From NCBI GenBank assembly GCA_964424615.1, contig CAYRIU010000033.1:247-64246 (forward strand): a DNA stretch of 64,000 nucleotides. Direction: 5' to 3'. The position numbers and the translations under genes are program-made. Positions 12,233 to 64,000 of this stretch are shown here, in pieces (within the stretch, counting starts at the first letter, position 1; each line of letters begins with the position of its first letter). Under the pieces are notes generated by a model. The model made no database searches and had not been told where the DNA came from. It worked only from the letters and a program-made list of their open reading frames with translations. Origin of the DNA: an uncultured Gammaproteobacteria bacterium. Lineage in GTDB: Bacteria > Patescibacteriota > Patescibacteriia > UBA1558 > GWA2-36-10.

Positions 12233-12240
12233 AATAATAT

Positions 12241-12618: not shown

Positions 12619-12644
12619 AAATTGTATTAAGAAAAGCGATTTTT

Positions 12645-12929
12645 ATGAAACAATATTTTGTTTATATTTTAGCCAGTAAGAATAATAAAGTTATCTATAT
12701 TGGTATTACTGATGATCTAGTGGGAAGAGTTTGGCAACATAAAAATGATGTAGTTGAAGGCTTTACCAAAAGATATCAAGTGCACAAGTTGGTATATTAT
12801 GAAATTATAGAAGATGTGACGGAGGCAATTTTAAGAGAAAAAAGAATGAAGAAATGGAAGCGTCAATGGAAAAATAATGTGATAAATGGATTTAATCCTA
12901 ATTGGGATGATTTGTATGATCAATTATAA
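12645..12929 (+). CDS. small GIY-YIG nuclease family protein (UPF0213-like), copy 1
   Basis: N-terminal YFVYILASKNNKVIYIGITDDLVGRVWQHKN GIY-YIG motif, 94 aa; followed directly by a palindromic repeat element. Confidence 0.7.
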   Translation: MKQYFVYILASKNNKVIYIGITDDLVGRVWQHKNDVVEGFTKRYQVHKLVYYEIIEDVTEAILREKRMKKWKRQWKNNVINGFNPNWDDLYDQL

Positions 12930-12962
12930 CACAATATATTATTAGATTTTGCATTTTATTTT

Positions 12963-42972: not shown

Positions 42973-43052
42973 CCCACTGTAGCTTAGCCGATGAAAGCAC
43001 CCAGGTAATAAGAGCTGGGAGATCGTAGGTTCAAATCCTACCAGTGGGACCA
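42973..43052 (+). tRNA. tRNA-like gene with encoded CCA and a non-canonical 10-nt anticodon loop (identity undetermined; could be an unusual tRNA or a pseudogene)
   Basis: Acceptor CCCACUG/CAGUGGG. D-arm GCUU-AGCCGAUGA-AAGC. Anticodon stem CCCAG/CUGGG enclosing GUAAUAAGAG. Variable AGAUC. T-arm GUAGG-UUCAAAU-CCUAC, discriminator A, CCA. Own promoter TTGACA (42931)-16-TAACAT and terminator at 43086. Confidence 0.55.
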
Positions 43053-43187: not shown

Positions 43188-43294
43188 AACCCCGTAGCTC
43201 AACTCGATAGAGCAGTAGGTCATCCACGAGTGCCTACTACGGGCGCTGATAAAAAAGTGCCCGTGTGGTGGTTCGAATCCACCCGGGGTTCCCA
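43188..43294 (+). tRNA. tRNA-like gene (104 nt plus CCA) with 13-nt anticodon loop and about 29-nt variable region (identity undetermined)
   Basis: Acceptor AACCCCG/CGGGGUU. D-arm GCUC-AACUCGAUA-GAGC. Anticodon-position hairpin GUAGG-UCAUCCACGAGUG-CCUAC. Long variable arm ACGGGC-N14-GCCCGU. T-arm GGUGG-UUCGAAU-CCACC, discriminator C, CCA. Own promoter TTGACA (43145)-16-TATTAT and terminators at 43305-43359. Confidence 0.5.
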
Positions 43295-44825: not shown

Positions 44826-44833
44826 TTAAATCT

Positions 44834-45529
44834 ATGATTTTTACAGATTCTCAAAATTTAATATTATTAATTGCGGCTTTGATTAATTTATCGATGAGTT
44901 TATTTATTTTTAGCAGAGGAGCAAAAAATAAGGTAAATTTCTACTTTGGTTTAGTGACTTTGTTTAATTTTTTCTGGGCTACCTGTCTAATAGTTATTAA
45001 TTCAGCGATTAGCTATGAACTTACAAGGTTTTTTGGTAGCTTTGTCTACCCAATAGCTTTGATGGTAGTAATTAGCTTATTTTATTTTTCTATTTATTTT
45101 CCTTATGAATCTTTTAGGGTGAATAAAATTTATAAATGGTTAATTAATTTTTCTATAATTTTTTATTCTATTTACTGTAGTTTATTCTATAAATTTTTTG
45201 TCCCTAAAGTCGATTTACTGCCAAAGGTGATTGTTTATTATGAACCAGTAGTTTACACAATTTTTAGTGTCATTTTGATTACACTGATGTTATTTGCTAT
45301 CCATATTATATACAAGAAATATAAAATAGCCACGGGCATATTTAGAGTACAATTGATGTTGATATTAATTGCTGTTATTATTGGCACGGCAGCTGGTTGT
45401 TATTTCAATTTGATAGCCATGTATTATAACAATTTAGCTTATAATCACTTAGGTCCACTATTTACTTTGTTTATTAATTTAGTAGTATTTGGTTTCATTA
45501 TTTCTTCTAGAGAAAAAATAAGTAATTAA
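44834..45529 (+). CDS. standalone 7TM sensor-domain paralog 1 (HisKA_7TM-like)
   Basis: 231 aa, about 7 TM helices; N-terminus and C-terminal SREKISN tail conserved with the next two genes. Confidence 0.55.
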   Translation: MIFTDSQNLILLIAALINLSMSLFIFSRGAKNKVNFYFGLVTLFNFFWATCLIVINSAISYELTRFFGSFVYPIALMVVISLFYFSIYFPYESFRVNKIYKWLINFSIIFYSIYCSLFYKFFVPKVDLLPKVIVYYEPVVYTIFSVILITLMLFAIHIIYKKYKIATGIFRVQLMLILIAVIIGTAAGCYFNLIAMYYNNLAYNHLGPLFTLFINLVVFGFIISSREKISN

Positions 45530-45533
45530 ATAT

Positions 45534-46232
45534 ATGATTTTATTCGCTTGGCAAAATATTGTATTAATTATTACTGGTTTGGTTAATCTAGTCATGGGCA
45601 TTTTTGTATTAAAAAGAGGCTTGAGGAGTAAAATTAATTTATATTTTTCTACTTTGGTATTTTTTAATTTTTTGTGGAGTATTTTTATAGTGGGGGCTTT
45701 TTCATCTAATAATCTATCGATGGTTAATTTTTTTGATAAAACAACTAATTTATTTGGCATTGGTATTATTTTATCATTATTTTACTTTACTTTATATTTT
45801 CCATATCAGTCAGATAAAATAAGCAGTTTTAAGACAAAATTAATTTGGTTTTCTTCAATAGTTATTTCTTTTATGATTTACACCAAATGGTTTGTCGTTA
45901 ATACTATTTGGGTTGCAAGGCCATTTAGTTATATTTCATATTATAATAAATACGGTTATTTTGTTTATACCTTATATTTTTTTGTTTTTGCGTGCTGGTC
46001 AATATACTTTTTATTTAAAAAATATAGGAAAGTAGAAGGAGTTACTAGGTTGCAGTTAAAACGATTAATGTTATCAATTGTGGTGGGTTTGATTTGTGGA
46101 GCTTACTTTAATTTAGTATTGAACTACCTCGGTGTTTTTAATCTTGGTTGGCTTGGGCCGTTTTTTACCTTATTTATGAATATAGTAGTTTTTCAAACTA
46201 TTAGATCACCTAAAGAAAAAATAAGTAATTAG
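45534..46232 (+). CDS. standalone 7TM sensor-domain paralog 2
   Basis: 232 aa; same architecture; ends SPKEKISN; intergenic junction AAAATAAGTAATTAAATATATG conserved. Confidence 0.55.
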   Translation: MILFAWQNIVLIITGLVNLVMGIFVLKRGLRSKINLYFSTLVFFNFLWSIFIVGAFSSNNLSMVNFFDKTTNLFGIGIILSLFYFTLYFPYQSDKISSFKTKLIWFSSIVISFMIYTKWFVVNTIWVARPFSYISYYNKYGYFVYTLYFFVFACWSIYFLFKKYRKVEGVTRLQLKRLMLSIVVGLICGAYFNLVLNYLGVFNLGWLGPFFTLFMNIVVFQTIRSPKEKISN

Positions 46233-46236
46233 ATAT

Positions 46237-46935
46237 ATGAGTATTTTTTCAACACAAAATTTTATTTTATTGGTTGCTGCTTTTGTAAATTTATTTATGA
46301 CATTTTTTGTCTTTAGACGTGGCATCAAAAATAAAATAAATTTATATTTTGGATTGTTAACCTTTTTTAATTTTACTTGGAGTTTAGGATTGTTAATTTC
46401 TAGATCCATTGAGAATATTAGTTTGGTAGCTATAGTAGCTAGAAGTACTTATATTTCAGCTTTAGCTATAGTTATTTTTTTATTTTACTTTGTTCACCAT
46501 TTTCCCTATCAGGCGGAAAAATTAAAAATTTATACTCATATTTTCATTTTATTTCCGGCTATTATTTTATCGTTTATAGTTTATACAAAATTTTTTATTC
46601 TTGATACAGTTAGAGCTTATAGTAATTTAGAGTACATATCTTATTACAATAAGTCTGGTTTTTTTCTTTATGCTATTTATTTTGTTATTATAGCTATTTT
46701 AGCTTTAAAGAAGTTATTTAAAAAATATAATTTATCAGAAGGTTTATTAAAACAGCAAATAAAAATGTTATTAGTCTCTATCATAATTGGTTTATTATTT
46801 GGTAGTTATTTTGATTTGTTTATCCAATATTTTAATGATTATAGATTTAATTGGCTGGGTCCTATATTTACCGTATTAATGAATTTTATTGTTTTCTTTT
46901 TTGTTATTTCCCCTAAAGAAAAAATCAATGGTTAA
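46237..46935 (+). CDS. standalone 7TM sensor-domain paralog 3
   Basis: 232 aa; same architecture; ends SPKEKING. Confidence 0.55.
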   Translation: MSIFSTQNFILLVAAFVNLFMTFFVFRRGIKNKINLYFGLLTFFNFTWSLGLLISRSIENISLVAIVARSTYISALAIVIFLFYFVHHFPYQAEKLKIYTHIFILFPAIILSFIVYTKFFILDTVRAYSNLEYISYYNKSGFFLYAIYFVIIAILALKKLFKKYNLSEGLLKQQIKMLLVSIIIGLLFGSYFDLFIQYFNDYRFNWLGPIFTVLMNFIVFFFVISPKEKING

Positions 46936-51937: not shown

Positions 51938-54757
51938 ATGCAACAGCTATTTGCAATATCTGGTTTAGTAAATTTTGCAGTTTCCATTGTAATTAGTTTT
52001 TTTGTTTTCATAAAAAAAAGAAATAATTCTAATATTTTATTTTCAATATTGACTTTTAGCACGGCCGTTTGGTCTTTTGGCTATTGGAGGTGGTTATCAG
52101 TAGTGGATAATCATGAAACAGCAATATTTTGGCTGAAATTTTTAACATTAGGCTCAATATGGATTCCAATTTTATTTACACACTGGATCTCTAGTTTATT
52201 TAATAAAATTATTGCAAAAAAAGTTAATTTTTTTGTTTTGGCATTAGCCTATTCTTTGGGAGTTTTTTTTAGCGTCATTAATTTTTTATCTGATTTAATG
52301 GTCGGTGGAGTTGAGGAAAAAATGGGCTTTATTTTTTGGCCAAACGCTGGATCATTTTATATCTTTTATATAATATTCGTTTATTTTGCATTAACTCTGT
52401 ATACGGGGTTATTATTAACAAAATATTACAAAAAATCTACAGGTGCTTTAAAGAATCAAATAAAATATGTTAGCATTGGTTGCTTAATCGCCCTATTGGG
52501 CGGAGTGTTTAATTTTTTTCTTTGGTATGATATAAACATTCCTCCTTATGGCAACCTCATAATTCCTGTGTATCCAGTGTTGATTTCGTATGCCATAGTC
52601 AAGTTTAGGTTGATGGATATCAGAATGGTTATTACTAGGAGTATCTTGTATGGTTTCCTTGTAGTCATAGTAGCTGCCTTTTTTGCTGGTTCAGTTTTTT
52701 TAACCAGTACTTACTTAGAAACTGAAAATAAATACACTACTATACTTTTATATATTTCTGCTTCCGCAGTTGTGGTTATTTTTCTAGATCCAGTCAAAAA
52801 TATTTTTGCTCGTCTCACTGATAAAATTTTTTATAAAGATAGAATTGATTATCAAAAGCTTTTACAACGAGCCAGTTCTGTAGTAGCCAAAGAAATTGAT
52901 TTAGAAAAATTATCTTTTTCTTTATGTAATTTATTAAATGAAGAATTAAAAGTCAAAGTTGTTTCAGCTATTATAGCTAAAAAAGATGAGTGGAGCTTGA
53001 TTGCTAGTTCTGATAACAATCATCGTCATTTAAAACTTAGTGATACTTTCATAAAATTTATTCAGGAGAGACATGATTTTATAGTAGTGGAGGAATTGAT
53101 TAGTAGTCAAAATGATATTAATACCGATGTTCCATATTATGAAACCTTGAATCAATTCATACAAGAAGCAGAGAGTCAAAAAGTAGAGATGATAGTTCCA
53201 GTACTGGGTGACAATGGTCAATTGACTTCTATTTTTTTGTTGAGTGCCAAAAATTCTGGTGATCTATATGGACAGGATGATATTAATTTTTTCAAAGTTT
53301 TGTCTCCCCAGATTGGTACAGCCATAGAAAAATCTAAGCTATACGAAGAAGTCCAAGAGTTCAATCGTGAATTGCAGGCCAAAGTTGATGCCAGAACCAA
53401 GAGTTTGAAAGAGGCTAATCTTGGTTTACAACAGCGTAATAAATTTTTGACAGCCATGCAGGCTGTCACCAATATGGTTAGTCGTACTATGGACTTGAAG
53501 CAAGTCAACCAAATGATTGTGAATAGCATATCTTTGGAGCTGGGCTATATTGGTGGTATTTTGAGTTTTGTAGATGATAAAAATCAAGTTTTACGCATCA
53601 GTTCTATCACAGAAAATGAACAGAGTGAAGAGGTGATCAAGATTTTGGGGCAAGATCCCAAAAATTTTGAAGCGGAAATGAAGATGCGTGATTTGTTGGG
53701 TGTCAAGACTGTCATGTCTGGTCAGATGAACACCTCTGATAAGATGTCCGATTTTTTTTCACCACCAGTAGAAAAAAACTTGATTGATCAGGTGCAAACA
53801 AAATTAGGTGTCAAAACTATCGTTGGTTTGCCAATTTTTTCTGAAGATAAAATCATTGGTATTATACATTTTTTACTCGCTGTAGAAAAAAAAGATGTCA
53901 GCTCTCTGGATACTGACATCATGATCGCTCTGGCTGACCAGGTGGGTATCGTGTCTAGAAACTTACGCTTGTATAACAATCTACAAGCTACCAACCAAGA
54001 CTTGCAGGTAGCTAATATGCGCTTGCGTGAGCTAGATCAGGCTAAGTCTGAATTTTTATCGATTGCTTCTCATCAGTTGCGTACGCCAATTTCTGCTCTC
54101 AAGGGTTATTTATCTATGATTCCTGATGGAGATTTTGGTACTGTACCACCAAAAATTGGTAAAGTAGTCAAAGATCTTTTTGAAAGTGCCGCTCGCTTAG
54201 CTAGATTGGTCAATATATTTTTGAATGTTTCACGTATTGAGTCTGGTCGACTGAAGATAGAAAAGAAACCTCTACAGATTGGCGATATGATTGAGAGTGT
54301 CATATCTGAGCTACACAATGAGTCAGATAAGAAAGGTGTGAAGTTGATTTACAAAAAGCCAAAACCAGCTTTGCCACTCGTAGCGGCTGACTCTGATAAG
54401 CTACGTGAAGTAGTCTTGAACTTGATTGACAACTCTATCAAATACACGCCAAAAGGTCAGATAGAGATCAGCGCCACAGTAGAAAATGACAATATGCACT
54501 TCAAGGTGCAAGATACTGGTATTGGTATAGATCCAGAAGAAGCCAAAAATTTATTTAGAAAATTTGTGCGTGCTAGTGGAGCGGCTCAGGTGCACACTGG
54601 TGGTTCTGGTTTAGGTTTATTCATCGCTCAGAAGATCATCAAAGAGCACGGTGGTCAAATATGGGTAGAGAGCGCTGGTAAAGAGCAGGGGAGCACTTTT
54701 CAATTTTTGATACCCATGAATGGCGGTGAGCCCAATAAAGAGGAGATGCAGTCCTAA
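51938..54757 (+). CDS. sensor histidine kinase: 7TM N-terminal sensor, GAF domains, HisKA and HATPase_c
   Basis: N-terminal 7TM region homologous to the 43437-46935 genes; H-box ASHQLRTPISALKG; N, G1, G2 boxes (DTGIGI..., GGSGLGL). No response regulator adjacent. Confidence 0.85.
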   Translation: MQQLFAISGLVNFAVSIVISFFVFIKKRNNSNILFSILTFSTAVWSFGYWRWLSVVDNHETAIFWLKFLTLGSIWIPILFTHWISSLFNKIIAKKVNFFVLALAYSLGVFFSVINFLSDLMVGGVEEKMGFIFWPNAGSFYIFYIIFVYFALTLYTGLLLTKYYKKSTGALKNQIKYVSIGCLIALLGGVFNFFLWYDINIPPYGNLIIPVYPVLISYAIVKFRLMDIRMVITRSILYGFLVVIVAAFFAGSVFLTSTYLETENKYTTILLYISASAVVVIFLDPVKNIFARLTDKIFYKDRIDYQKLLQRASSVVAKEIDLEKLSFSLCNLLNEELKVKVVSAIIAKKDEWSLIASSDNNHRHLKLSDTFIKFIQERHDFIVVEELISSQNDINTDVPYYETLNQFIQEAESQKVEMIVPVLGDNGQLTSIFLLSAKNSGDLYGQDDINFFKVLSPQIGTAIEKSKLYEEVQEFNRELQAKVDARTKSLKEANLGLQQRNKFLTAMQAVTNMVSRTMDLKQVNQMIVNSISLELGYIGGILSFVDDKNQVLRISSITENEQSEEVIKILGQDPKNFEAEMKMRDLLGVKTVMSGQMNTSDKMSDFFSPPVEKNLIDQVQTKLGVKTIVGLPIFSEDKIIGIIHFLLAVEKKDVSSLDTDIMIALADQVGIVSRNLRLYNNLQATNQDLQVANMRLRELDQAKSEFLSIASHQLRTPISALKGYLSMIPDGDFGTVPPKIGKVVKDLFESAARLARLVNIFLNVSRIESGRLKIEKKPLQIGDMIESVISELHNESDKKGVKLIYKKPKPALPLVAADSDKLREVVLNLIDNSIKYTPKGQIEISATVENDNMHFKVQDTGIGIDPEEAKNLFRKFVRASGAAQVHTGGSGLGLFIAQKIIKEHGGQIWVESAGKEQGSTFQFLIPMNGGEPNKEEMQS

Positions 54758-54783
54758 GGGAAAAAGAAAATTATTTATTTTTT

Positions 54784-54818
54784 AAGCTGTCTTAAGGAAT
54801 GCCTTGACAGCTTTTTTG
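54784..54818 (+). terminator. intrinsic terminator after the histidine kinase
   Basis: AAGCTGTC-TTAAGGAATGCCTT-GACAGCTTTTTTG; overlaps a TTGACA-16-TATAAT promoter for the next cluster. Confidence 0.6.
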
Positions 54819-54951
54819 TTTGAGCTATAATGAAAGTGTTGACATGGACGGCTATAATTCTATAGACGGCTAGTATTATTTGATTAATGTTCCCTTTGTT
54901 TGTTATTTGTTATATTATTATAGACATAATAGATATTAATCAAATTAAAAG

Positions 54952-55902
54952 ATGGAGAAATTTGACAATATGGGTAGTAAATTTAAAAGCGATAGCGTGG
55001 ATGATCAAAAAGAGTTAGATTTTGAGAGGCGTAAAATTATAGAACAATATAGGGTTGATCTTTTTAAAAAATTAGAGGCCTTTCGTATTGTGTTGGATCC
55101 AGACAGAAAAGACCAGCATCTGATTGTGAATCCCTTTGTTATTGATGACCTGATTAATTTTGGTGATATTAATAAAGATGACACTGTGTTAGAAATTGGT
55201 GCTGGTCCAGGAAATATAACGGAAAGATTAGTTGATCGAGCTGGTCATGTCTATACTTTGGAAATAGATGAAAGGTTTGAACCCATCTTGCAAGCCCTAC
55301 AGAGCGAACACCCGAATTTAGATGTTATTATGGGTGATTTCCTAGAGACAGAGCTACCAGATTTTAACAAAATTGTAGCCAATCCTCCATTTAGTATTCT
55401 AGAACCGATGATTCAGAAATTAGGTGATCAAAGATTTGAATTAGCCTCTCTGGTTATTGGTGATAGTTATTATAAAAGGACATTAGCTAGGCCAGGTACG
55501 GATAATTTTACCAAAACAAGTTTATTTACTCAGGCCCATTTTTTACCAGAATATTTGCGTGGTCTTGATAAAGAAGATTTTTATCCAAAATCAAGAGAGC
55601 GGGCTGTAATTATGAGATTAGTATCCAATGTAGGTGGTGGGGATTTTATGCTTAGGCGAATTGCTGATGCTTTTTCTGAGGTGGCTGAAAAGAGAGTTAG
55701 ATTTTTGGTGGATAATATTTGCCACATTTACGGTGGTCCTAGAGGAAAAATTACTGTAAGGAATTATGAAGAGGTGGTAAGTCCAGACTCACTTGGCATC
55801 AATCCAGTCATCTTGTCAAAACGTTTGCAGGAGTTGTCCAATAGAGAGATAAGTCAGTTGGTAGTTAAATTATTGAGCTTGTCCGGTAGAAAAAGACACT
55901 AG
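54952..55902 (+). CDS. Erm/KsgA-family (rRNA adenine dimethylase-like) methyltransferase with NPPF motif
   Basis: VLEIGAGPGNITERL motif I and VANPPFSI motif IV in RrnaAD-like spacing; target unknown. Confidence 0.55.
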   Translation: MEKFDNMGSKFKSDSVDDQKELDFERRKIIEQYRVDLFKKLEAFRIVLDPDRKDQHLIVNPFVIDDLINFGDINKDDTVLEIGAGPGNITERLVDRAGHVYTLEIDERFEPILQALQSEHPNLDVIMGDFLETELPDFNKIVANPPFSILEPMIQKLGDQRFELASLVIGDSYYKRTLARPGTDNFTKTSLFTQAHFLPEYLRGLDKEDFYPKSRERAVIMRLVSNVGGGDFMLRRIADAFSEVAEKRVRFLVDNICHIYGGPRGKITVRNYEEVVSPDSLGINPVILSKRLQELSNREISQLVVKLLSLSGRKRH

Positions 55903-55967
55903 GTATTATTTGGTTGTGATAATTGTTTGTGTGTCTGATTGGCCGGGGTATCATATTATAAAATATT

Positions 55968-57644
55968 ATGAATATATTGGGATTGAATGGTTGGAGGTTC
56001 AGATCACACGATGCAGCCGCCTGTATTGTAAAGAATGGTCGACTTATTTTTGCTGTTGAAGAAGAAAGAATAACTAGGAAAAAACATTCTTTTGATCTTC
56101 CGCCTATACAATCCACCCTTCATGCTTTGCAGTATGCCAATTTAACAATAGACGACATTGATCTCATAACTTTTGGTTGGGATATAACTAAGTTATTTAA
56201 TAAAAAACCGACCGAGAAGGAGATATTTGAAGTTTTATTGCCCAGAAAAATTTTTTTGTATAAAAAAAGACCCAAGATTATTTTTGTACCACATCATTTA
56301 GCTCATGCTTATTATGCTTATTATTCATCTCCATTTGTTGGTCAACAGACAAACATTTTAATTTTAGATGGTCAAGGAGAAGAGGAATCAATATCTTTTG
56401 GTAGTGCATCTGGCAGGGGCGTTTTTTTAGACGGCACCATACCGGCGTCCCAATCTTTGGGTTATTTTTATGGAGCTGTTTGTAGATTTTTAGGCTATTC
56501 CAATTTAGATGGTGGAAAGTTGATGGGTTTAGCCCCCTATGGTCATCACGAAAATGTAAATGTTAGCAAAAAATTTAATTATCATCATAGTCAAATATCA
56601 AATTTTCCTAAAATAGCTACAAAAGGAATTGATATTGAAGAAAAAACTATCTCCTGGTGGCTAAATTATTTTGAGAGATATTTTCATTTGAAACCTTTCC
56701 ACAAAAAATATATATTTTCCTCGTCATTTAGATTTGAAAAAGAGCGTAATGATTATATTATTAGTGCCCAAGCACATATTGCCCATACAGCTCAGCAAAT
56801 ATTAGAAAAGATTATTTTGCAAATGTCAGGGTATCTGCAAGATAGGTATAAAAATGATAGATTAGTATTAGCTGGTGGCGTTGCACTTAATTGTGCCGCT
56901 AACCAAAAAATTCAAGAAGTTAATAATATTAAAATTCACATACCATCTTCACCAGCTGATTCTGGTGTAGCTATAGGCTCTGCTATTTATGGTGCTATAA
57001 AAAATAAAGAAATATTATCTCGCATTAGTACGCCTTATTTGGGTTCAGATTATCATGGTAATCAAATAAAGGAAGTTTTAGATAAAAATAAAATTGCTTA
57101 TAAATACACAAAGAGGCCAGAAGAATTAGCGGTCCGTTTATTAAAAAAGAATTATTTAATAGGCTGGTTTCAGGGTAGGGCAGAGTTTGGCCCTCGTGCT
57201 TTAGGCAATAGAAGTATATTGGCCAATCCATTGTTTCAGGAAAATCATGAGAGGTTAAACAAACTGAAAGGCAGAGAACAGTGGCGACCATTGGGTATTA
57301 GCATTATAGAGGAAGAATTTAAAAATTATTTTGAAGGAATAGGGGCCTCTCCTTACATGATGATTACAAGCAAGGCCAATAAAAGAATGAGAAAGATTTG
57401 TCCAGCTATTATTCACGTAGATGGGACCTCTCGTCCGCAGCTCGTAAAAAAGAAAGATAATCCTTTATTTTACAGCTTGATTAAGAGTTTTGGTAAGCGG
57501 AGTACTTGCTCATTTGTTATTAATACTTCTTTTAATCGTTATGATGAGCCAATAGTAAATAGTCCAGAAGATGCCATAAGGACATTTTTTACCACTTCTT
57601 TAGATGTATTAATATTAGATCATTATGCCATATTTAAAAGATAA
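55968..57644 (+). CDS. NodU/CmcH-family carbamoyltransferase
   Basis: N-terminal MNILGLNGWRFRSHDAAACIVKNGRLIFAVEEERITRKKHS and overall 558-aa architecture typical of O-carbamoyltransferases. Confidence 0.75.
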   Translation: MNILGLNGWRFRSHDAAACIVKNGRLIFAVEEERITRKKHSFDLPPIQSTLHALQYANLTIDDIDLITFGWDITKLFNKKPTEKEIFEVLLPRKIFLYKKRPKIIFVPHHLAHAYYAYYSSPFVGQQTNILILDGQGEEESISFGSASGRGVFLDGTIPASQSLGYFYGAVCRFLGYSNLDGGKLMGLAPYGHHENVNVSKKFNYHHSQISNFPKIATKGIDIEEKTISWWLNYFERYFHLKPFHKKYIFSSSFRFEKERNDYIISAQAHIAHTAQQILEKIILQMSGYLQDRYKNDRLVLAGGVALNCAANQKIQEVNNIKIHIPSSPADSGVAIGSAIYGAIKNKEILSRISTPYLGSDYHGNQIKEVLDKNKIAYKYTKRPEELAVRLLKKNYLIGWFQGRAEFGPRALGNRSILANPLFQENHERLNKLKGREQWRPLGISIIEEEFKNYFEGIGASPYMMITSKANKRMRKICPAIIHVDGTSRPQLVKKKDNPLFYSLIKSFGKRSTCSFVINTSFNRYDEPIVNSPEDAIRTFFTTSLDVLILDHYAIFKR

Positions 57645-58296
57645 AATTTTAGTAATAGCTCCCCATCATGATGACGAAATTTTGGGTTGCGGCGGGTTTA
57701 TAAAAAAAAGTGTAGATTCTGGTAATTCGGTAGCAATTTTATTTATCACGAGTGGTTGGAGTGGTATTAAGGAGAAAAAAATGTCCACACAGGAAAAAAT
57801 AAACATTCGTGAAGGAGAGGCTAAAAAGGCCAATGGTATTTTGGGTGTTAAAAAATTAATTTTTTTAAGAAAGGAAGATCGAGCTATTTATGCTGATAAG
57901 AAGTTGCTGATAGATATAGTTAGGATCATACAGAAAGTTCAACCACAAATTATGCTTTGCCCACACAAAGATGATGCTGATTTTGAGCACAAAATAATCA
58001 ATAGATTAACCAAAGAGGCTATTTGGCTGGCTCGAGATGGTAATTTGGTTAATAATTTATCAGCGGCCAAGGGTTTAAATAAAATTTTGTTCTATGAAGT
58101 CTGGACACCAATTCTAAAACCAAATTTTTATGTCAATATTACTGATCAAATTGAGACCAAAAATTTGGCTCTGATGCAATATAAAAGTCAACTACGACAG
58201 AGGTCATATTCTGACATGGCAGTCGGTTTGAATATGTTTAGGGGTGGCTTGAAGGGTTATAAATATGCAGAAGCTTTTGTGGAACAGAAAATATGA
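57625..58296 (+). CDS. PIG-L/LmbE-family N-acetylglucosaminyl deacetylase
   Basis: ILVIAPHHDDEILGCGG zinc-binding motif. Confidence 0.75.
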   Translation: MPYLKDKILVIAPHHDDEILGCGGFIKKSVDSGNSVAILFITSGWSGIKEKKMSTQEKINIREGEAKKANGILGVKKLIFLRKEDRAIYADKKLLIDIVRIIQKVQPQIMLCPHKDDADFEHKIINRLTKEAIWLARDGNLVNNLSAAKGLNKILFYEVWTPILKPNFYVNITDQIETKNLALMQYKSQLRQRSYSDMAVGLNMFRGGLKGYKYAEAFVEQKI

Positions 58297-59120
58297 ACAA
58301 ATATCCAATCTCTATAGTTATACCATGCTCTGATGACGTACTCATTAAAAATTGTTTAGATTCTATAGACGTAGAAGTTGAGATTGTTGTTTCTTTAAAT
58401 AGGCCATCTAGAGCTGTTAGAGACATACTTATTGATTATCCCCAGGTCAAAATAATTGAAACAGATAAACAGGGCATTGCTTTGGCATATAATAATGGTA
58501 TTGAGGCAAGTGATAACGACTGGATTCTTTTGATGGATTCAGACTGTACTTTTTCTCCTGGTTCCATATTCATGCTATGGTCTATGACTAGTAATTTTTT
58601 GGTTATTAAAGGGAAAACAATTTTTTTATCCACGGATTTTGTTTCATCTATTATAGCTAAAGTGAGAGAATTTACGACCAGTGATAAAGTAAATGCTTAT
58701 TCTCCACCACTCTTGTTCAACAAAAATATCATCAAGCACATTGGTTATTATTTTCATCCATATTTGGTTTGGTCGGAGGATGGGGATTTTAATAATAGAA
58801 TAAAATCTAATAATATACCCATTGCTTATGTTCCTGAGGCAACTATATTACATAAACCATTAAAATTTAGCCAAGATATAAAGAGTGCCTTTCGTTATGG
58901 TATCGGTAGACAGATTGGAAAGGATTTAAAGGTATATAAGCCACACACCATCAAGTCATTTTTTGGTAATGTAATTTTGGTGTTAACAAATACCTTTAGT
59001 ATTATTGTTAAAAAAGGTTTTTTTTCAGCAATTTATTATTTTTTATTTTGGAATTCGGCATTTCGTTTGGGTACATTTTTGCAAAACAAATTTCATTTAT
59101 ATAAGCATAAAAAATTATGA
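58293..59120 (+). CDS. family 2 glycosyltransferase
   Basis: ISIVIPCSDD N-terminus, DSD (DxD) motif, 275 aa. Confidence 0.65.
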   Translation: MNKYPISIVIPCSDDVLIKNCLDSIDVEVEIVVSLNRPSRAVRDILIDYPQVKIIETDKQGIALAYNNGIEASDNDWILLMDSDCTFSPGSIFMLWSMTSNFLVIKGKTIFLSTDFVSSIIAKVREFTTSDKVNAYSPPLLFNKNIIKHIGYYFHPYLVWSEDGDFNNRIKSNNIPIAYVPEATILHKPLKFSQDIKSAFRYGIGRQIGKDLKVYKPHTIKSFFGNVILVLTNTFSIIVKKGFFSAIYYFLFWNSAFRLGTFLQNKFHLYKHKKL

Positions 59121-59818
59121 ATATTAAACACAAATCAATTTTACTACTTTCCGGAGGCTTGGATTCTTTTATTGCTTGGCATTATTTAAATTGTCCACCA
59201 GTTTTATTCATTGATGCGGGGCAATCTTATGTTAGAAAAGAATTAAAATCAGTTAAAAATATTGCTAGCAAATATAAAAGAATGGAGTTGCACATAGATA
59301 ATTCACTACATTTATCTAGGTGGGAAGAGAAAAATCACTATATTCCCTATAGGAATGTTTTGTTCTCCATGGTGGCTAGCTTGTATGCCCAAAAGGTTTA
59401 TTTGATTGGTGTGAAAGGTGATTCGGTTGATGATAATAATCCAAAAGCTACAAAATTAATGTCTAACTTTTTTTTGAATTTTAATGATAATAAGAAAACA
59501 GTTGTTACAAGTCCGTTTTACCATATGAGTAAAAGTCAGGTAGTAAGGTGGTATGTGAAACAGGGTCTGCCAGTAAAAAATCTTTTATTGACGCGTTCTT
59601 GTTATGATAGAAATACTCTCGGGCAATGTGGTAGATGTGGTAGTTGTTTTCGAAGATGGGTGGCTCTAGAAAATAACAATATTAAGGAAAAATATGATTC
59701 TCCGCCTTGGAAATGGTCCGAGGTCAAGCATTATGTGAGTAAAATGAAAGCCGGCCTTTATGATCAGGATAGGGTGGAGGAGACCTTTTTTGCACTTAGA
59801 AAATATATAAAAATATGA
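59117..59818 (+). CDS. QueC-like PP-loop ATPase (7-cyano-7-deazaguanine synthase family)
   Basis: SGGLDS PP-loop and C-terminal zinc cluster CYDRNTLGQCGRCGSCFRRW in QueC-like positions. Confidence 0.65.
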   Translation: MNIKHKSILLLSGGLDSFIAWHYLNCPPVLFIDAGQSYVRKELKSVKNIASKYKRMELHIDNSLHLSRWEEKNHYIPYRNVLFSMVASLYAQKVYLIGVKGDSVDDNNPKATKLMSNFFLNFNDNKKTVVTSPFYHMSKSQVVRWYVKQGLPVKNLLLTRSCYDRNTLGQCGRCGSCFRRWVALENNNIKEKYDSPPWKWSEVKHYVSKMKAGLYDQDRVEETFFALRKYIKI

Positions 59819-60135
59819 TCAAATCAATACCTTTGGACTATAAAATTTCTGGCACTAAGATTTTTTTGCCATTTAAAGCAATCTGTTCTGTGACAAATAA
59901 AAGTTTTTCCGGTAATGTTATAATAGAATATCACCCACAAGGGATGGCATTAGAATACGTTGATGCGGAGAAGGTTATAGATAATATTGCTAGTTCCAGA
60001 ATAACTGCCGAAGATTTAGCGCATTTGGTATTTAAAGAAGTGGAACAATCTATCAAGCCAAAATATATTAAAGTTACAATTGATGTTCAACACTCCGAAG
60101 CACATCGTCCGGTGGAAGTGTGGGTTGAAAATTAA
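59815..60135 (+). CDS. divergent QueF-family T-fold protein (106 aa) lacking the canonical NADPH-binding QueF motif
   Basis: Alignable to unimodular QueF around the catalytic Cys (FKAICSVTNKS vs FTSLCPKTGQPD) and the E/HED region. The E(S/L)K(S/A)hK(L/Y)(Y/F/W) motif is replaced by EYVDAEKVI. Confidence 0.45.
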   Translation: MIKSIPLDYKISGTKIFLPFKAICSVTNKSFSGNVIIEYHPQGMALEYVDAEKVIDNIASSRITAEDLAHLVFKEVEQSIKPKYIKVTIDVQHSEAHRPVEVWVEN

Positions 60136-60147
60136 TTAATTTAAAAT

Positions 60148-60846
60148 ATGAATCTAATTTTATTAGTTTTTTGGATCATTGCTATTACCAGCTTTACTTT
60201 GTTGGGCAGTTGGTATGTCAAAAAATATAATAAGCCCGATCTACTTATTGGTTTATATGTAACTTTTATTTTGGTAGCTCAAATTTTAGCATCCAAGATA
60301 GCAGTTTATGATTTGGGCTTCAAGAATTTTTTTGGTCCTAGCGGTGTTTTGGTATTCCCAATAACTTATTTACTAACAGATATTGTAAATGAAAGATTTG
60401 GTAGAAAAGAGACGCAAAAAATGATCTTGATAGCCTTTATTTCGCAGTTAGCTATGGTTTTTTTCTTTTGGTTGGGCGTGAAGCTGCCCCCGGCTTCTTT
60501 TTGGGTGATGCAGGGGGAGTGGGAGCAAATTTTTAATTTTGTACCAAGGATAACTTTGGCTAGTTGGGTGGCCTTTATAATTACAGAAAATTTTGATGCC
60601 TACGTGTATTCTTGGTTTAAAAAATTAACTCACAATAGGCATCTTTGGATGAGGAATATTTTTAGTTCTTTACCGGCATTATTATTGGATAGTGTTATTT
60701 TTATACCATTGGCTTTTTTAGGTTCAATGCCACTTTGGCCACTGATTGTTGGTCAGACAGCTGTTAAGTGGTTGGTTGGAATTATAAATGTTCCCTTTAT
60801 GTATATGAATAAAGCTATAATTGGTAAAAATGTTGTGGAGAAATAG
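60148..60846 (+). CDS. YhhQ/QueT-family queuosine-precursor transporter
   Basis: Six TM helices with VLVFPITYLLTDIVNERFG signature of the YhhQ family. Confidence 0.7.
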   Translation: MNLILLVFWIIAITSFTLLGSWYVKKYNKPDLLIGLYVTFILVAQILASKIAVYDLGFKNFFGPSGVLVFPITYLLTDIVNERFGRKETQKMILIAFISQLAMVFFFWLGVKLPPASFWVMQGEWEQIFNFVPRITLASWVAFIITENFDAYVYSWFKKLTHNRHLWMRNIFSSLPALLLDSVIFIPLAFLGSMPLWPLIVGQTAVKWLVGIINVPFMYMNKAIIGKNVVEK

Positions 60847-60882
60847 AAAATTATTTCTCCCCAAACAATTTATGATATAAAT

Positions 60883-61335
60883 ATGTCAAACCTCAATTCA
60901 CAAATCTTACACTCAATCGTAGTCAGCGCTGTGATCGAAAAAGACGGCAAAATTTTGATATCACAGCGAAGCTTTGAAGAAAAACACGAGCCTGGTAAAT
61001 GGACTATACCAGGTGGTAAAATAGAGGTTACTCCAGGAGACGTTTTTCATATTTTAGAAAAAACACTAGCCAAAGAGGTAGAGGAAGAGGTTGGTATAAA
61101 AATATCAGCGAATGTTGAATTACTGACTAATAACACCTTTATACGCTCCGATGGTACGCATGTAGTAGCTTTGATGTTTTTTTGTCACTATGAATCTGGG
61201 GATGTAAAAGCTTTGGAGGACACGCTTGATGTCAGGTGGGTAAATGAAGACGAATTATCCAATTATAATTTTTCACCAAATGTTCAAGGGTATATTAAGT
61301 TAGCCTTTAAAAAAATTCATGCCAAAAATCACTGA
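60883..61335 (+). CDS. NUDIX hydrolase
   Basis: Nudix box GGKIEVTPGDVFHILEKTLAKEVEEEVGI. Confidence 0.75.
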   Translation: MSNLNSQILHSIVVSAVIEKDGKILISQRSFEEKHEPGKWTIPGGKIEVTPGDVFHILEKTLAKEVEEEVGIKISANVELLTNNTFIRSDGTHVVALMFFCHYESGDVKALEDTLDVRWVNEDELSNYNFSPNVQGYIKLAFKKIHAKNH

Positions 61336-61930
61336 TAAAAAACTAAAATTATTTATAAAAAATATCAAAAAAGAATTTGATGTATTTTTTGATTTTAAAA
61401 TAAAAGATCCCTCTTTATACTTTGTGGCTAGTCGTCAAGATTTTGATGTAATAGTAGGCAGAAAAACTGAGAATTGGCTCGTAGGAATTGCTAGAGCCAA
61501 TAGTATTTATATTTTGGATCGTAAAATTTTCGCTAAAGAATCAAATCATAAAAAAGAAGAATTTTGGTTCATACTCAAACACGAATATAGTCATATTTAT
61601 TATACACAAATAACCAAAAGTCATTATCCTGTTTGGCTCAATGAGGGATTAGCTAGTCATCTTTCTGGAAAGAAAATAGTTATTAAAGAGAAAGATCGGG
61701 GGAAATTACTTAATGTTTTTGATTATTATAATAAAGGTGGTAAAGACCTCTACACAATTAGTCAATATTGGGTAGAATTTTTACTCAAAGAATATGGGCA
61801 GAAAAAATTAATCAAATTGATAAAATCTTTGGATATCAAAGAAGAATTAAGTAGTAATTACTTTAATAAACAATTTTATAGAATATACGGTTTTAAGTTT
61901 AATAAAAAAACTTTTGTTAAATTTTTATAG
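61319..61930 (+). CDS. putative gluzincin-type metallopeptidase (HExxH...NEG)
   Basis: HEYSHIYYTQITKSHYPVWLNEGLASH: HExxH plus a downstream Glu in M1-like spacing. Confidence 0.35.
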   Translation: MPKITDKKLKLFIKNIKKEFDVFFDFKIKDPSLYFVASRQDFDVIVGRKTENWLVGIARANSIYILDRKIFAKESNHKKEEFWFILKHEYSHIYYTQITKSHYPVWLNEGLASHLSGKKIVIKEKDRGKLLNVFDYYNKGGKDLYTISQYWVEFLLKEYGQKKLIKLIKSLDIKEELSSNYFNKQFYRIYGFKFNKKTFVKFL

Positions 61931-62525
61931 TATGCCCAGCATAGTCATCGCCACCAAAAATCCACATAAACAGAAAAAGCTAATTGAAATAGTGCAAGAT
62001 TATTTCACGCCTTTGTTGCTTGATGAGAAAATACCAGAGCCAGAAGAAAATGGTAAAGATTTTTTGGAAATTGCAGAGAATAAAGCTATTTACTATTCTT
62101 TAGCTACTAAATCTTTGGCCATTTCTAGTGATGCTGGAGCAGTGATACCGTCTGTGCCTGAGTGGGATCCATTGCATACCAAGCGTTTTGCTGATACCGA
62201 TGAAGAGAGGATAGATAAATTGTTAGCCATGATGGAGGGTAACACCGATCGCACCATTCGTTGGTTTGAAGCCATGGCTGTAGCCAAAGACGGTAAAATA
62301 CAATTTTCGGCTTTAGTTGAGGCTAGACGTGGTAAAATAGCCACTCATTTTGATAAGAGTAGATATCAAGATGGTATGTGGATGTCTTCTATCACGGAGT
62401 TCCCACAATTTGGCAATAAGAATTTTTTTGAGCTAACACCAGCAGAAAGAGCAAAAACAGAAAATTCTTGGGCTCAGCTCAAAGTAAAATTTGCTAAATT
62501 TATGGCTAAAAGTGATTTAAAATAA
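61914..62525 (+). CDS. Ham1/RdgB-family non-canonical purine NTP pyrophosphatase
   Basis: SIVIATKNPHKQKKLIEIV N-terminal motif typical of RdgB/ITPase. Confidence 0.6.
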   Translation: MLNFYSMPSIVIATKNPHKQKKLIEIVQDYFTPLLLDEKIPEPEENGKDFLEIAENKAIYYSLATKSLAISSDAGAVIPSVPEWDPLHTKRFADTDEERIDKLLAMMEGNTDRTIRWFEAMAVAKDGKIQFSALVEARRGKIATHFDKSRYQDGMWMSSITEFPQFGNKNFFELTPAERAKTENSWAQLKVKFAKFMAKSDLK

Positions 62526-62528
62526 TAT

Positions 62529-62945
62529 ATGACCACTCGCGTCCGTGCCATTATTATCAAAAATAATAAGATCCTTTTACTGAAAAGGAAAAAGGATAAT
62601 ATTGTTTATTGGGTTTTGCCGGGTGGTCAAGTAGAAAATGGAGAAATCAATGAACTAGCTCTAGCTAGGGAATGCCTAGAAGAGTTGGGCGTCCAAATAA
62701 AAGTCAAAGAATTAATTCACGAAATGCTCTCTAAATATGCAGAGCTTTATGGTCAAAGGGAGTATTTTTTTAATTGTGAAATTTTGGGTGGCACACTTGG
62801 CTCTGGTGTCGGGCCAGAATGGCGGCCCAATAGTGGCTACCAAGGAAATTATCAGATAGAATGGTTAGATTTAAATAATTTATCAGAAATTGACTTGAAG
62901 CCAGTGGAGATGAAAAAAATTATATCAAATAAATTAATCAATTAA
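62529..62945 (+). CDS. NUDIX hydrolase
   Basis: Nudix box GGQVENGEINELALARECLEELGV. Confidence 0.75.
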   Translation: MTTRVRAIIIKNNKILLLKRKKDNIVYWVLPGGQVENGEINELALARECLEELGVQIKVKELIHEMLSKYAELYGQREYFFNCEILGGTLGSGVGPEWRPNSGYQGNYQIEWLDLNNLSEIDLKPVEMKKIISNKLIN

Positions 62946-63092
62946 TCTATTGTGAGGCGGTTTTTGAGCCGCTTTTTGGCCGCACAAAAGGCGGCAAAAG
63001 ATTAAAAATTTCGTCTTCCATTTACTCTAAAAAAATGTTATAATTCCAGACACTTATAGGAGTGTAATTTTGTTAATTTTATAAAAAAATAT

Positions 63093-63485
63093 ATGAAAAT
63101 TGGTCATTCTATTACTTTTTTGGCTGTGGTCATGCTGGTAGCTTCCGGCTTTTTTTTCTTTTTTAAGCACTATGAAGCGGCGGAAAATCGTATTTTATTA
63201 CAGTCATTGGGTTGTACTTCAGAAAAAATTGATAAATCTATCACAGCTTTGGCTGCTGATACCAAGACAGTAGGTGCTCTAGTGGCTTTTGATCGTACGC
63301 CTATCAGTGACGATGTACGTAAACAGATAGATGATTTGAATATTGAGATTGATGAAGCCAACTGGGTTTTGGATTATGGTCACTTAGAGATTCCGACCAA
63401 GAGTCTGTGTGCTCTGGTCAAGCTACCTCAAGTAACGAGAATATTTATCCCTAGCCAACAATATGGAATTACGATCAATCAATAA
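63093..63485 (+). CDS. hypothetical membrane-anchored protein
   Basis: N-terminal TM helix (ITFLAVVMLVASGFFFFF), 130 aa. Confidence 0.35.
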   Translation: MKIGHSITFLAVVMLVASGFFFFFKHYEAAENRILLQSLGCTSEKIDKSITALAADTKTVGALVAFDRTPISDDVRKQIDDLNIEIDEANWVLDYGHLEIPTKSLCALVKLPQVTRIFIPSQQYGITINQ

Positions 63486-64000
63486 AGCTACCCTCAAAAA
63501 CAAAAGAGTACTTTTGCGCTTGGATCTCAATGTCCCGATCCACAATGGTCGGGTACCCAAAGATGGTCAGGAGAGGATTTTGCGGGCACTGCCGACTATT
63601 AAATTTTTGCTAGCCAAAAAAGCTAGTGTTATTATTGTCGCTCACCTAGGTAGACCAGAGGGGCAAGTAGTAGAGAAGTATTCTTTAAAACCCGTGGCTC
63701 TGGCTTTGCAGAAAATTTTGGGTAAAAAAATTATTTTTTGGTCAGGAGATTTTGCTAGTCATATTGCGGAGAGTAAAAATTTGAAACCTGGTCAAATAGT
63801 TTTGTTAGAAAATATTCGTTTTTATCCTGAGGAGCAAAAAGGTGATAAAATGTTTGCCAAAAAATTGAGTCAATTGGCTGATGTTTATATCAACGATGCT
63901 TTTGGCAATATTCATCGCTCTGATGCCTCTATGCTGGCTATTACTTATTATTTGCCTAGCTATGCTGGATTTTTGTTGCAAGATGAGATCAAAAATTTAT
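63463..64000 (+). CDS. pgk: phosphoglycerate kinase (5' partial, runs off the window)
   Basis: MELRSINQ...KRVLLRLDLNVPIHNGRV...ASVIIVAHLGRPEG canonical PGK N-terminus; no stop before the window end. Confidence 0.85.
   Translation, partial: MELRSINKATLKNKRVLLRLDLNVPIHNGRVPKDGQERILRALPTIKFLLAKKASVIIVAHLGRPEGQVVEKYSLKPVALALQKILGKKIIFWSGDFASHIAESKNLKPGQIVLLENIRFYPEEQKGDKMFAKKLSQLADVYINDAFGNIHRSDASMLAITYYLPSYAGFLLQDEIKNL

Follow-up and report, generated by a model that had tools for sequence, protein, structure and literature searches.

7-Deazaguanines are known from tRNA (queuosine and archaeosine), from phage and bacterial DNA and from a small number of actinomycete antibiotics; a recent addition is their use as protein tags in immunity against phages. 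Huimycin, encoded by huiA-G of Kutzneria albida, is a methylated preQ0 (7-cyano-7-deazaguanine) that carries N-acetylglucosamine (GlcNAc) on its 2-amino group (N2); its cluster combines FolE, QueD, QueE and QueC with a glycosyltransferase and an S-adenosylmethionine (SAM) methyltransferase, and a carbamoyltransferase gene lies directly downstream (PMC7439116). Three archaeosine synthases, ArcS, GAT-QueC and QueF-L, convert the nitrile of preQ0 to an amidine, and in archaea they act on tRNA-bound preQ0, after arcTGT, QueF-L doing so with ammonium (PMC5485725). The QueC-fold PP-loop enzymes Cap9 (type IV CBASS) and QatC (QatABCD) use ATP to join the carboxylate of 7-carboxy-7-deazaguanine (CDG) to an amine other than ammonia. 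Streptothricin biosynthesis is reported to rely on a guanidino-N-glycosyltransferase together with an N-acetyl-sugar deacetylase and to yield an amino sugar that is carbamoylated, the acceptor being a nitrogen of a guanidine-like ring. Here we describe a gene cluster that resembles each of these systems in part and lies on a 64,000-nucleotide chromosomal stretch of a Patescibacteria metagenome-assembled genome (contig CAYRIU010000033.1, positions 247–64,246; hereafter the window).

The cluster opens with seven plus-strand genes at 54952–60846, encoding a KsgA/Dim1/Erm-superfamily SAM methyltransferase (54952–55902, 316 aa), a TobZ/NodU-type carbamoyltransferase (55968–57644, 558 aa), a PIG-L/LmbE-family de-N-acetylase (57625–58296, 223 aa), a GT2 glycosyltransferase of GT-A fold (58293–59120, 275 aa), a divergent QueC-family PP-loop ATPase (59117–59818, 233 aa), a QueF-L-like T-fold protein (59815–60135, 106 aa) and a YhhQ/Vut_1 queuosine-precursor transporter with a putative substrate (60148–60846, 232 aa). 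Four of the junctions overlap, by 20, 4, 4 and 4 nt, and the other two are gaps of 65 and 12 nt. An earlier, sequence-only reading had described these genes as a co-directional block of seven. All seven open reading frames (ORFs) are present where it placed them, and profile scans uphold all seven family assignments and the co-directional packing, but the block extends past 60846 with a NUDIX hydrolase gene, an HExxH Peptidase_MA_2-like gene, a Ham1 gene and a second NUDIX gene, and comprises 11 genes at 54952–62945. We read the window as carrying a salvage-type version of a conserved Patescibacteria pathway to a 7-deazaguanine sugar conjugate, which is most likely a small molecule in free form and not a modified base in a nucleic acid, and assign this reading a probability of roughly 0.55. 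In our best reading, the likely product is a glucosamine-type, carbamoylated 7-deazaguanine conjugate with a predicted amide or amidine at C7.

For gene-neighborhood conservation on the QueC-like side, exact-protein look-ups and collection scans gave 92 loci, which were searched by tblastn with the window proteins; the genome-contig scan gave three loci, and metagenome contigs and protein searches supply the taxonomic breadth. The cluster holds together among relatives. Thirteen non-identical loci, which differ in their flanks and show at least eight gene orders, have the genes for carbamoyltransferase, PIG-L and GT2 alongside a QueC-family gene, and most of them (10 of 13) also have the RrnaAD-type methyltransferase gene. 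The carbamoyltransferase gene is kept in every variant with enough flanking sequence, and the PIG-L gene adjoins the GT2 gene in every variant or is separated from it only by the carbamoyltransferase or the methyltransferase gene. Wherever flanks are available and the QueC-like protein shares 62% identity or more with that of the window, the locus carries the carbamoyltransferase, PIG-L, GT2 and methyltransferase genes, in one of four orders and amid unrelated flanks. With MT for methyltransferase, CT for carbamoyltransferase and QueCL for QueC-like protein, these orders are MT-CT-PIGL-GT2-QueCL-[Tfold]-YhhQ (window, L006, L013–L018), QueCL-GNAT-FolE2-QueD-QueE-CT-PIGL-GT2-MT-NUDIX-NUDIX (L007, L019), MT-FolE2-QueD-QueE-CT-PIGL-GT2-QueCL-kinase-like (L008) and Tfold-YhhQ-QueCL-CT-PIGL-GT2-MT-GNAT (L011).

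The linkage is reciprocal, in that searches seeded with the QueC-like protein and searches seeded with the GT2 protein reach the same clusters. GT2 homologs at 35–44% identity lie with a QueC-family gene and a carbamoyltransferase gene in six of six contexts and with a PIG-L gene in five; in the sixth, L096 (Tfold-YhhQ-QueC(389 aa)-CT-GT2-MT-GNAT), a PIG-L-matching stretch lies under a minus-strand gene call. The remaining arrangements include BpsA_C-AdoMet decarboxylase-FolE-QueD-radical SAM-QueC(379 aa)-Peptidase_MA_2-CT-GT2-PIGL-APH-APH-MT-NUDIX-GrpB-NUDIX in L093, which L094 and L098 resemble, CT-QueC-GT2::NUDIX fusion-MT-PIGL in L095, and ABC exporter-ArcS-like-GT2-PIGL-B12 radical SAM-CT-BpsA_C-QueD-QueE-FolE-QueC-AdoMet decarboxylase in L097. 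FolE or FolE2, QueD and QueE genes are interspersed among the QueC-family, carbamoyltransferase, PIG-L, GT2 and methyltransferase genes in several loci. Together, these loci show a conserved functional unit of 7-deazaguanine supply with GT2, PIG-L and carbamoyltransferase, usually joined by the methyltransferase. The sequence-only reading had offered two interpretations of the block, a shared pathway tailoring a 7-deazapurine and a Nod-factor-like amino-sugar set merely fused to queuosine-precursor salvage; reciprocal co-conservation, together with the confirmed QueC and QueF-L families, supports the former, and the same co-conservation disfavors the latter.

Supply modules are mutually exclusive across the variants, with YhhQ, accompanied by the T-fold gene or not, in five, FolE/FolE2-QueD-QueE in seven and both in none, as expected if both feed the same pathway with 7-deazaguanine. 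The YhhQ protein of the window scores 130.9 bits against TIGR00697 (cut-off 50.95) and 160 bits against Pfam Vut_1.

The QueC-like protein is a genuine member of PF06508 (63.5 bits) and does not resolve to an unrelated family. Its best matches among solved structures are approximately equal, QueC 3bl5 at 3.8e-11 and Cap9 9nto at 5.6e-11, and its best PHROG is phrog_1550, annotated 'QueC-like'; against TIGR00364 it reaches 45.8 bits, under the cut-off of 150.3. SGGLDS (residues 12–17), IPYRN, K139 and the zinc motif C162-x8-C171-x2-C174-x2-C177 are kept, with SGGxDS and the zinc motif invariant across QueC-like alignments. By mutagenesis, Y35 (in YxQxHxxE) and YPDC (with the aromatic Y131) are essential for preQ0 synthesis in E. 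coli QueC (PMC13329287). Both canonical motifs are lost from the pocket of the window protein, which has AGQSYVRKE at the YxQxHxxE site and DDNN at the YPDC site, and the long QueC-like forms of 347–389 aa show the same pocket changes. Orthologs at 62–68% identity are linked to FolE2-QueD-QueE in L007, L008 and L019, genes that the window lacks.

Locus L097 lacks the divergent QueC-like protein. It encodes instead a canonical QueC (TIGR00364, 269 bits), which reads YNQRHKLE and GYPDC in the same alignment, and a 233-aa ArcS-like DUF5591 protein, whose gene adjoins GT2 and PIG-L in the slot of the divergent QueC-like gene. The ArcS-like protein, which reaches 27.3 bits in PF17884 (cut-off 26) and matches NCBIfam ArcS alpha at 1.7e-5, contains the motif C-x3-KPY-x2-S and is a stand-alone DUF5591 domain, with no match to the TGT-like or PUA domains carried by ArcS. 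The C7 step is encoded in three ways: by a short divergent QueC-like protein, as in the window, by a long QueC-like protein, or by canonical QueC with an ArcS-like domain. The ArcS-like gene of L097 (9287–9988) lies between genes for an ABC-2 type exporter (6336–8919) and a B12-binding radical SAM protein (11553–12941), the latter TIGR04295-like at 192 bits, under its cut-off; no RrnaAD methyltransferase is visible in L097 before the contig end.

In Pfam, the T-fold protein finds weak T-fold hits only. At 106 aa, it has the size of a unimodular QueF-L T-fold (about 105–110 aa). In profile searches of solved structures it comes closest to the archaeosine synthase QueF-Like (5jyx, E = 2.6e-5), an alignment that pairs the Cys residues, and a single-sequence AlphaFold2 (AF2) model with a predicted local distance difference test score (pLDDT) of 57 has the topology beta-beta-alpha-alpha-beta-beta and returns QueF-L for all of its top 13 Foldseek matches (TM 0.62). 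All five homologs aligned share Cys24, the counterpart of the thioimide-forming Cys21 of P. calidifontis QueF-L, whereas the position of the catalytic Asp of QueF and QueF-L (Cys+7) is an invariant Phe31, with Asp or Asn at Cys+4 instead. Against the QueF reductase model TIGR03139, the protein reaches 20.1 bits, under the cut-off of 86.9. The protein formerly labeled 'QueF-like' is thus nearest to the archaeosine synthase QueF-L and not to the NADPH reductase QueF. A FolE identity is rejected, as FolE matches reach E ~0.03 compared to 2.6e-5 for QueF-L. The family is small, with 51 representatives among 1.84 billion, and in the cluster variants examined it is seen solely beside YhhQ. Look-alikes of ArcS, GAT-QueC and QueF-L thus occur in variants of one cluster, which points to amide or amidine chemistry at C7 rather than plain production of preQ0 or preQ1.

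Among the sugar-tailoring enzymes, the carbamoyltransferase (Pfam Carbam_trans_N, 148 bits; Carbam_trans_C, 205 bits) has Kae1-like and YrdC-like domains and aligns over its full length (residues 1–557) with the aminoglycoside O-carbamoyltransferase TobZ (3ven, E 9e-95). Its score of 129 against the NodU equivalog lies far under the cut-off of 1000, which rules out a NodU or Nod-factor-like identity for the cluster. The PIG-L protein (PF02585, 89.4 bits; gathering 28.2) has an APHHDDE motif near its N-terminus, scores 112 bits against the BshB1 equivalog, under the cut-off of 182.5, and is closest among solved structures to two deacetylases of GlcNAc glycosides, diacetylchitobiose deacetylase (8bgn, 1e-20) and BshB1 (6p2t, 1e-15). 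The GT2 (Pfam Glycos_transf_2, 46 bits) carries DSD and ED motifs and belongs to a family of more than 300 members by profile search, mostly from Patescibacteria (Woese-, Ames- and Daviesbacteria). Its AF2 model is of high confidence (pLDDT 95.5), and Foldseek against the PDB returned only generic GT-A enzymes at TM 0.5–0.67, among them the nucleoside glucosyltransferase AvpGT, so reading the acceptor off the structure was dropped. By sequence, the solved structure that it matches best is SunS, a peptide S-glycosyltransferase (1e-7), over the nucleotide-binding half. Two proteins, P0109 (L095, 3598–4860) and P0139, of ~420 aa, fuse a GT2 of the cluster family to a NUDIX domain, a fusion that connects NUDIX hydrolases to the pathway.

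The methyltransferase (Pfam RrnaAD, 102.7 bits; motif IV NPPF) scores 111.4 bits against the RsmA model TIGR00755, under the cut-off of 171, and its best profile matches among solved structures are archaeal-type KsgA/Dim1 enzymes (8x3w, 3e-51; 3fyc, 5e-45, the latter covering both domains). It had been labeled 'Erm/KsgA-like'; the KsgA/Dim1 side of the label stands, but the protein is not clearly Erm, as it scores 95 bits against NF000499 (cut-off 212) and matches ErmC' at 1e-20, weaker than Dim1/KsgA at 1e-45 to 1e-51. Cluster-type methyltransferases form a tight group (E 1e-44 or better), and a Patescibacteria protein named RsmA is 27% identical at E 8e-9. The sub-cut-off score, the separate subfamily and the fact that the gene travels with the cluster led us to reject a housekeeping KsgA; the protein appears to be a cluster-specific KsgA/Dim1-like paralog distinct from Patescibacteria RsmA. 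No second RrnaAD gene occurs in the window or in any collected locus, which leaves the genome-wide status of a separate RsmA unaffected. A further relative, P0191, is a 481-aa fusion of a HAD hydrolase and an RrnaAD methyltransferase, 35% identical to the window methyltransferase over 59% of its length. PADLOC matches the window methyltransferase to mad2 (1e-21), which is probably generic family similarity.

Compared with the described systems, the cluster comes nearest to huimycin and to the streptothricin core, and these precedents fit the small-molecule reading. The sequence-only reading had called such tailoring undescribed for tRNA or DNA deazaguanines; as a small molecule, a glycosylated and methylated 7-deazaguanine has a precedent in huimycin (PMC7439116). 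The logic of huimycin (and of dapiramicin-type pyrrolopyrimidines) is common to the de novo variants, as preQ0 genes occur with glycosyltransferase and methyltransferase genes in L007, L008, L093, L094 and L098, whereas the window has YhhQ in place of the de novo genes. The likeness, that of HuiG and HuiC to the GT2 and the methyltransferase included, is one of gene content. Huimycin biosynthesis lacks a PIG-L deacetylase and does not need its neighboring carbamoyltransferase, and it uses a canonical QueC, 72% identical to ToyM, whereas that of the window is divergent. YhhQ, QueF-L-like and ArcS-like alternatives and a KsgA-type methyltransferase are all missing from it, and its host is an actinomycete and not a member of the Patescibacteria. 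With streptothricin and the 2-deoxystreptamine aminoglycosides, the cluster shares the trio of HexNAc transfer, LmbE-type de-N-acetylation and O-carbamoylation; the last is backed by the full-length TobZ alignment, and the likeness to streptothricin is one of reported enzyme functions. Aminoglycoside-style accessories (APH, GNAT, a KsgA/Erm-superfamily methyltransferase homolog and an exporter) also occur in cluster variants. The predicted aglycone differs, being 7-deazaguanine rather than streptolidine or 2-deoxystreptamine, as does the glycosyltransferase, a GT2 here compared to the GT4 enzymes of 2-deoxystreptamine pathways.

Each type of archaeosine synthase has a look-alike in some variant of the cluster (the QueC-like protein for GAT-QueC, the T-fold protein for QueF-L and the DUF5591 protein of L097 for ArcS), but no transglycosylase is linked, the T-fold protein lacks the aligned catalytic Asp and the QueC-like protein lacks a fused GAT domain. 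Cap9 and QatC share the PP-loop QueC fold with the window protein, which is as near to Cap9 as to QueC; they differ in that their partner genes are absent here, the neighbors are sugar-tailoring genes and the altered pocket residues are unlike those of both. PADLOC run on the block gave matches to generic QueC (1.9e-18), to QatC, very weakly (3.7e-4), and to the methyltransferase and NUDIX proteins, with no partner genes. A known anti-phage system was dropped as an identity, given that these generic matches come without CD-NTase, Cap10, QatA, QatB or QatD. In full-text literature searches, nothing besides huimycin linked QueC or 7-deazaguanine with a carbamoyltransferase or with Patescibacteria, and the cluster was undescribed there; a 2026 survey of the QueC family, which combined a sequence-similarity network with neighborhood analysis, makes no mention of the cluster group. 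The gene complement, the host phylum and the apparent C7 chemistry differ from those of known 7-deazapurine tailoring pathways.

A plausible order of steps can be proposed from enzyme-family precedent. YhhQ would import a 7-deazaguanine base, e.g. preQ0 or CDG, and Cys24 of the T-fold protein could capture the nitrile as a thioimide, adapting preQ0 for the pathway. The GT2 would then move GlcNAc from UDP-GlcNAc onto an acceptor. The simplest proposal is that the deazaguanine accepts the sugar, as it does in huimycin, because it is the only non-sugar building block provided by the cluster. Removal of the N-acetyl group by the PIG-L enzyme, freeing the sugar amine, is placed after the GT2 step because PIG-L enzymes act on GlcNAc glycosides and not on nucleotide sugars, and the TobZ-like enzyme would O-carbamoylate the sugar. 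The QueC-like ATPase may activate a C7 carboxyl or amide and couple it, as an amide or amidine, to ammonia or to an amine, which might be the one that PIG-L frees on the sugar; an ArcS-like or T-fold enzyme may likewise work on the C7 carboxyl or nitrile. The methyltransferase would either N-methylate an exocyclic amine of the product or methylate rRNA for producer protection, and the NUDIX and Ham1 proteins would either remove deazapurine nucleotides that form astray or act on an intermediate linked to a nucleotide.

Several points weigh against the small-molecule conjugate. The product and the enzyme activities are predictions, and the acceptor of the GT2 is not inferable from generic GT-A folds or from a SunS match at 1e-7. 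If YhhQ imports preQ0 and the QueC-like enzyme merely makes preQ0, the latter would be redundant; the role proposed for it is an inference. With Phe31 in place of the catalytic Asp, the chemistry of the T-fold protein may differ, or the protein may merely bind the base. The spread across reduced genomes may indicate a core cellular function and not a secreted compound. In archaea, the substrate of QueF-L and ArcS is preQ0 already bound in tRNA, and the methyltransferase retains both KsgA/Dim1 domains, so that a nucleic acid could be the target if a transglycosylase is encoded elsewhere.

This last point leads to nucleic-acid hypermodification, which we consider unlikely. Here, a transglycosylase encoded elsewhere would insert a 7-deazaguanine in tRNA, rRNA or DNA, an archaeosine-like amidine would be made in place by the QueF-L-like, ArcS-like or QueC-like enzyme, and the base would then be glycosylated, carbamoylated and methylated. 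Besides the tRNA substrates of the archaeal enzymes and the two-domain, KsgA/Dim1-type RNA methyltransferase homolog, the occurrence of the tRNA-modification genes MiaA and MiaB-like in the same window is consistent with such a target, as is the genomic setting of the closest QueC-like outgroup. That outgroup, at 30–46% identity, comes from phage-like contigs with FolE, QueD, QueE, a 296-aa radical SAM protein and an adjacent DpdA-like transglycosylase; such clusters may specify a glycosylated 7-deazaguanine DNA modification. The Patescibacteria clusters differ from these phage and Dpd DNA-modification clusters in lacking DpdA and having GT2, PIG-L, carbamoyltransferase and methyltransferase genes, which in effect take the place of DpdA. 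As the sequence-only reading stated, the window has no tgt or dpdA: Pfam found no TGT among 17 ORFs of 290–472 aa outside the cluster, and tblastn with a DpdA-like seed, the protein of L009, found none. Neither TGT nor DpdA appears within ~10 kb in any of the 13 cluster variants; the same seed matched none of the cluster loci, but found at least 36 phage-like loci with a DpdA-like gene beside QueC-like homologs. The ArcS-like protein of L097 lacks the TGT-like and PUA domains of ArcS, and the solved homologs found for the TobZ-type and PIG-L-type enzymes all use small-molecule or glycoside substrates, which likewise argues against a nucleic-acid target. As a separate observation, the phage-like contigs (L009, 5184–14925; L033, L036, L040, L044, L057, L067 and L091) carry two or three glycosyltransferases in each set, and their DpdA-like transglycosylase matches phrog_887 (1e-42).

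Quite unlikely, in our view, is the modification of a protein, peptide or surface glycan, in which the QueC-like protein would act as a Cap9/QatC-type ligase and place CDG on an amine of a surface glycan or at the N-terminus of a protein or peptide, that N-terminus would be exposed by the HExxH peptidase, and GT2, PIG-L and carbamoyltransferase would decorate the same target. Cap9 and QatC do ligate CDG to protein N-termini, and the QueC-like protein matches Cap9 as well as QueC (PADLOC QueC, 1.9e-18); the long forms (347–389 aa) have QatC-like N- and C-terminal extensions with a weak QatC match, a Peptidase_MA_2 gene lies between QueC and carbamoyltransferase genes in L093 and L094, and in L094 the cluster has Wzy_C and GT1 genes as neighbors. 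The GT2 has the peptide glycosyltransferase SunS as its top match among solved structures, but that match is limited to the nucleotide-binding half. Moreover, CD-NTase, Cap10 and QatABD are absent from the PADLOC results and the neighborhood gene lists, and no conserved gene for a possible substrate stood out in the lists of called genes, in which small ORFs were not searched for. Highly improbable is a chance product of genome compaction, with an envelope amino-sugar set (GT2, PIG-L, carbamoyltransferase and methyltransferase) beside ordinary queuosine-precursor salvage (YhhQ, QueC and QueF-like) serving tRNA. Streamlined genomes are commonly tightly packed, and YhhQ exceeds the curated cut-off for queuosine-precursor transporters. 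However, the linkage outlasts shuffling of gene order, change of flanks and the swap of YhhQ for de novo genes placed between the sugar genes and the methyltransferase gene, GT2-side contexts have QueC-family neighbors in six of six cases, and the QueC-like protein falls under the curated cut-off and lacks the essential motifs. Reciprocal co-conservation has already largely refuted adjacency by chance.

If the small-molecule conjugate is real, it would represent a new branch of 7-deazaguanine metabolism, a sugar-linked carbamoylated deazaguanine from a phylum regarded as biosynthetically poor and kept in the reduced genomes of several Patescibacteria lineages. Patescibacteria are tiny episymbiotic bacteria, and a product that is an antibiotic or antiviral would bear on the interaction between episymbiont and host; a nucleic-acid modification would be the first glycosylated or carbamoylated archaeosine-type base. 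Four families (QueC-like, QueF-L-like, ArcS-like and KsgA-like) are candidates for new activities. The alternation of salvage and de novo supply and of three C7-processing enzymes provides a natural experiment, and the pathway is a compact unit of 9–12 genes, suited to heterologous expression. A bolder extension, which we regard as doubtful, is a novel class of bioactive compounds widely encoded in Patescibacteria, aminoglycoside- or streptothricin-like molecules joining a 7-deazaguanine (as an archaeosine-type amidine or amide that mimics guanine) to a carbamoylated glucosamine, aminopropylated in some lineages. Their targets would be ribosomes or nucleic acids, be it those of hosts, of competitors or of phages, with the KsgA/Dim1-like enzyme protecting the producer by methylating its own rRNA and APH, GNAT, GrpB or the ABC exporter as alternative protection.

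The accessory genes of the variants comprise APH-type kinases, GNAT, GrpB, a P-loop kinase-like protein, an ABC exporter, NUDIX, and BpsA_C with AdoMet decarboxylase; of these, APH, GNAT, GrpB, the exporter and BpsA_C/AdoMet decarboxylase fit tailoring of, or self-protection against, an aminoglycoside-like compound. The pair of BpsA_C and AdoMet decarboxylase hints at aminopropylation of the product. BpsA_C (branched-chain polyamine synthase-like) recurs in Microgenomates-type variants (L093, 3313–4615; L094, 3388–4374; L097, 14643–15833 and 18349–18717; L098, 3947–5258), with a called AdoMet decarboxylase gene in three of four and a short remnant in L094. In L097 it sits between the carbamoyltransferase and QueD genes, and the window has neither BpsA_C nor AdoMet decarboxylase.

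Downstream of YhhQ in the window, all on the plus strand, the first NUDIX hydrolase (60883–61335; Pfam NUDIX) is a probable accessory. NUDIX genes accompany the cluster in L007 and L093, and in L096 a NUDIX-like stretch, detected by tblastn, separates the QueC-like gene from that for the carbamoyltransferase. PADLOC matches this NUDIX protein to the candidate defense family PDC-S07 (E 6.6e-21), probably through generic family similarity. The HExxH protein (61319–61930; HEYSH...NEG), also a probable accessory, has a weak Pfam match to Peptidase_MA_2 and is homologous to the product of the Peptidase_MA_2 gene between QueC and carbamoyltransferase in L093 and L094 (BLASTP E 1e-8). The Ham1/RdgB-type non-canonical purine NTP pyrophosphatase (61914–62525; Pfam Ham1p_like, 55 bits) is encoded by a co-directional, overlapping gene that accompanies the cluster in the lineage of the window only, and its membership is uncertain. 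The second NUDIX hydrolase (62529–62945; Pfam NUDIX, from the annotation of L001) is a possible accessory; in L007, a similar NUDIX gene follows the methyltransferase gene, its product 46% identical to the second window NUDIX over 54 aa.

In the 194-nt gap 5' of the first gene, a plus-strand TTGACA-16-TATAAT site (54804–54831) matches the sigma-70 consensus at 12 of 12 positions and is the sole perfect match within 54500–63200. Promoter-like sites overall are not enriched in the region (34 observed compared to 37.4 expected), and we treat the site as a consensus match and a candidate promoter, which is no proof of function. An Rfam scan of 54500–63500 with E up to 1 gave nothing credible and no preQ1 riboswitch, and control of the cluster by a riboswitch or other RNA element was dropped as a candidate.

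Housekeeping genes surround the block, including those for DnaE, ThrRS, Mfd, GatB, IMPDH, ThyA, MiaA and RF1. Cluster loci elsewhere often lie beside mobile or defense-type genes (L093, 16081–18960; L007, 8933–9595; L098, 12823–13558), for example a transposase, a reverse transcriptase with a helix-turn-helix gene, AbiEii and a Phd/PIN toxin-antitoxin pair. Immediately 5' of the cluster in the window is a gene for a full 939-aa 7TM histidine kinase (51938–54757), and further upstream (43437–46935) three stand-alone HisKA_7TM membrane proteins of 231–232 aa are encoded in tandem after a protein that combines HisKA_7TM and GAF. ARAGORN calls a tRNA with a four-base anticodon (ataa) at 42973–43052 and a tRNA-Ser with anticodon ACT at 43201–43292; these unusual tRNAs could be mis-calls or intron-bearing. 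Just past the 3' end of the window, tandem genes for cofactor-independent phosphoglycerate mutases (522 and 525 aa; L001, 16779–19933) follow those for PGK and enolase.

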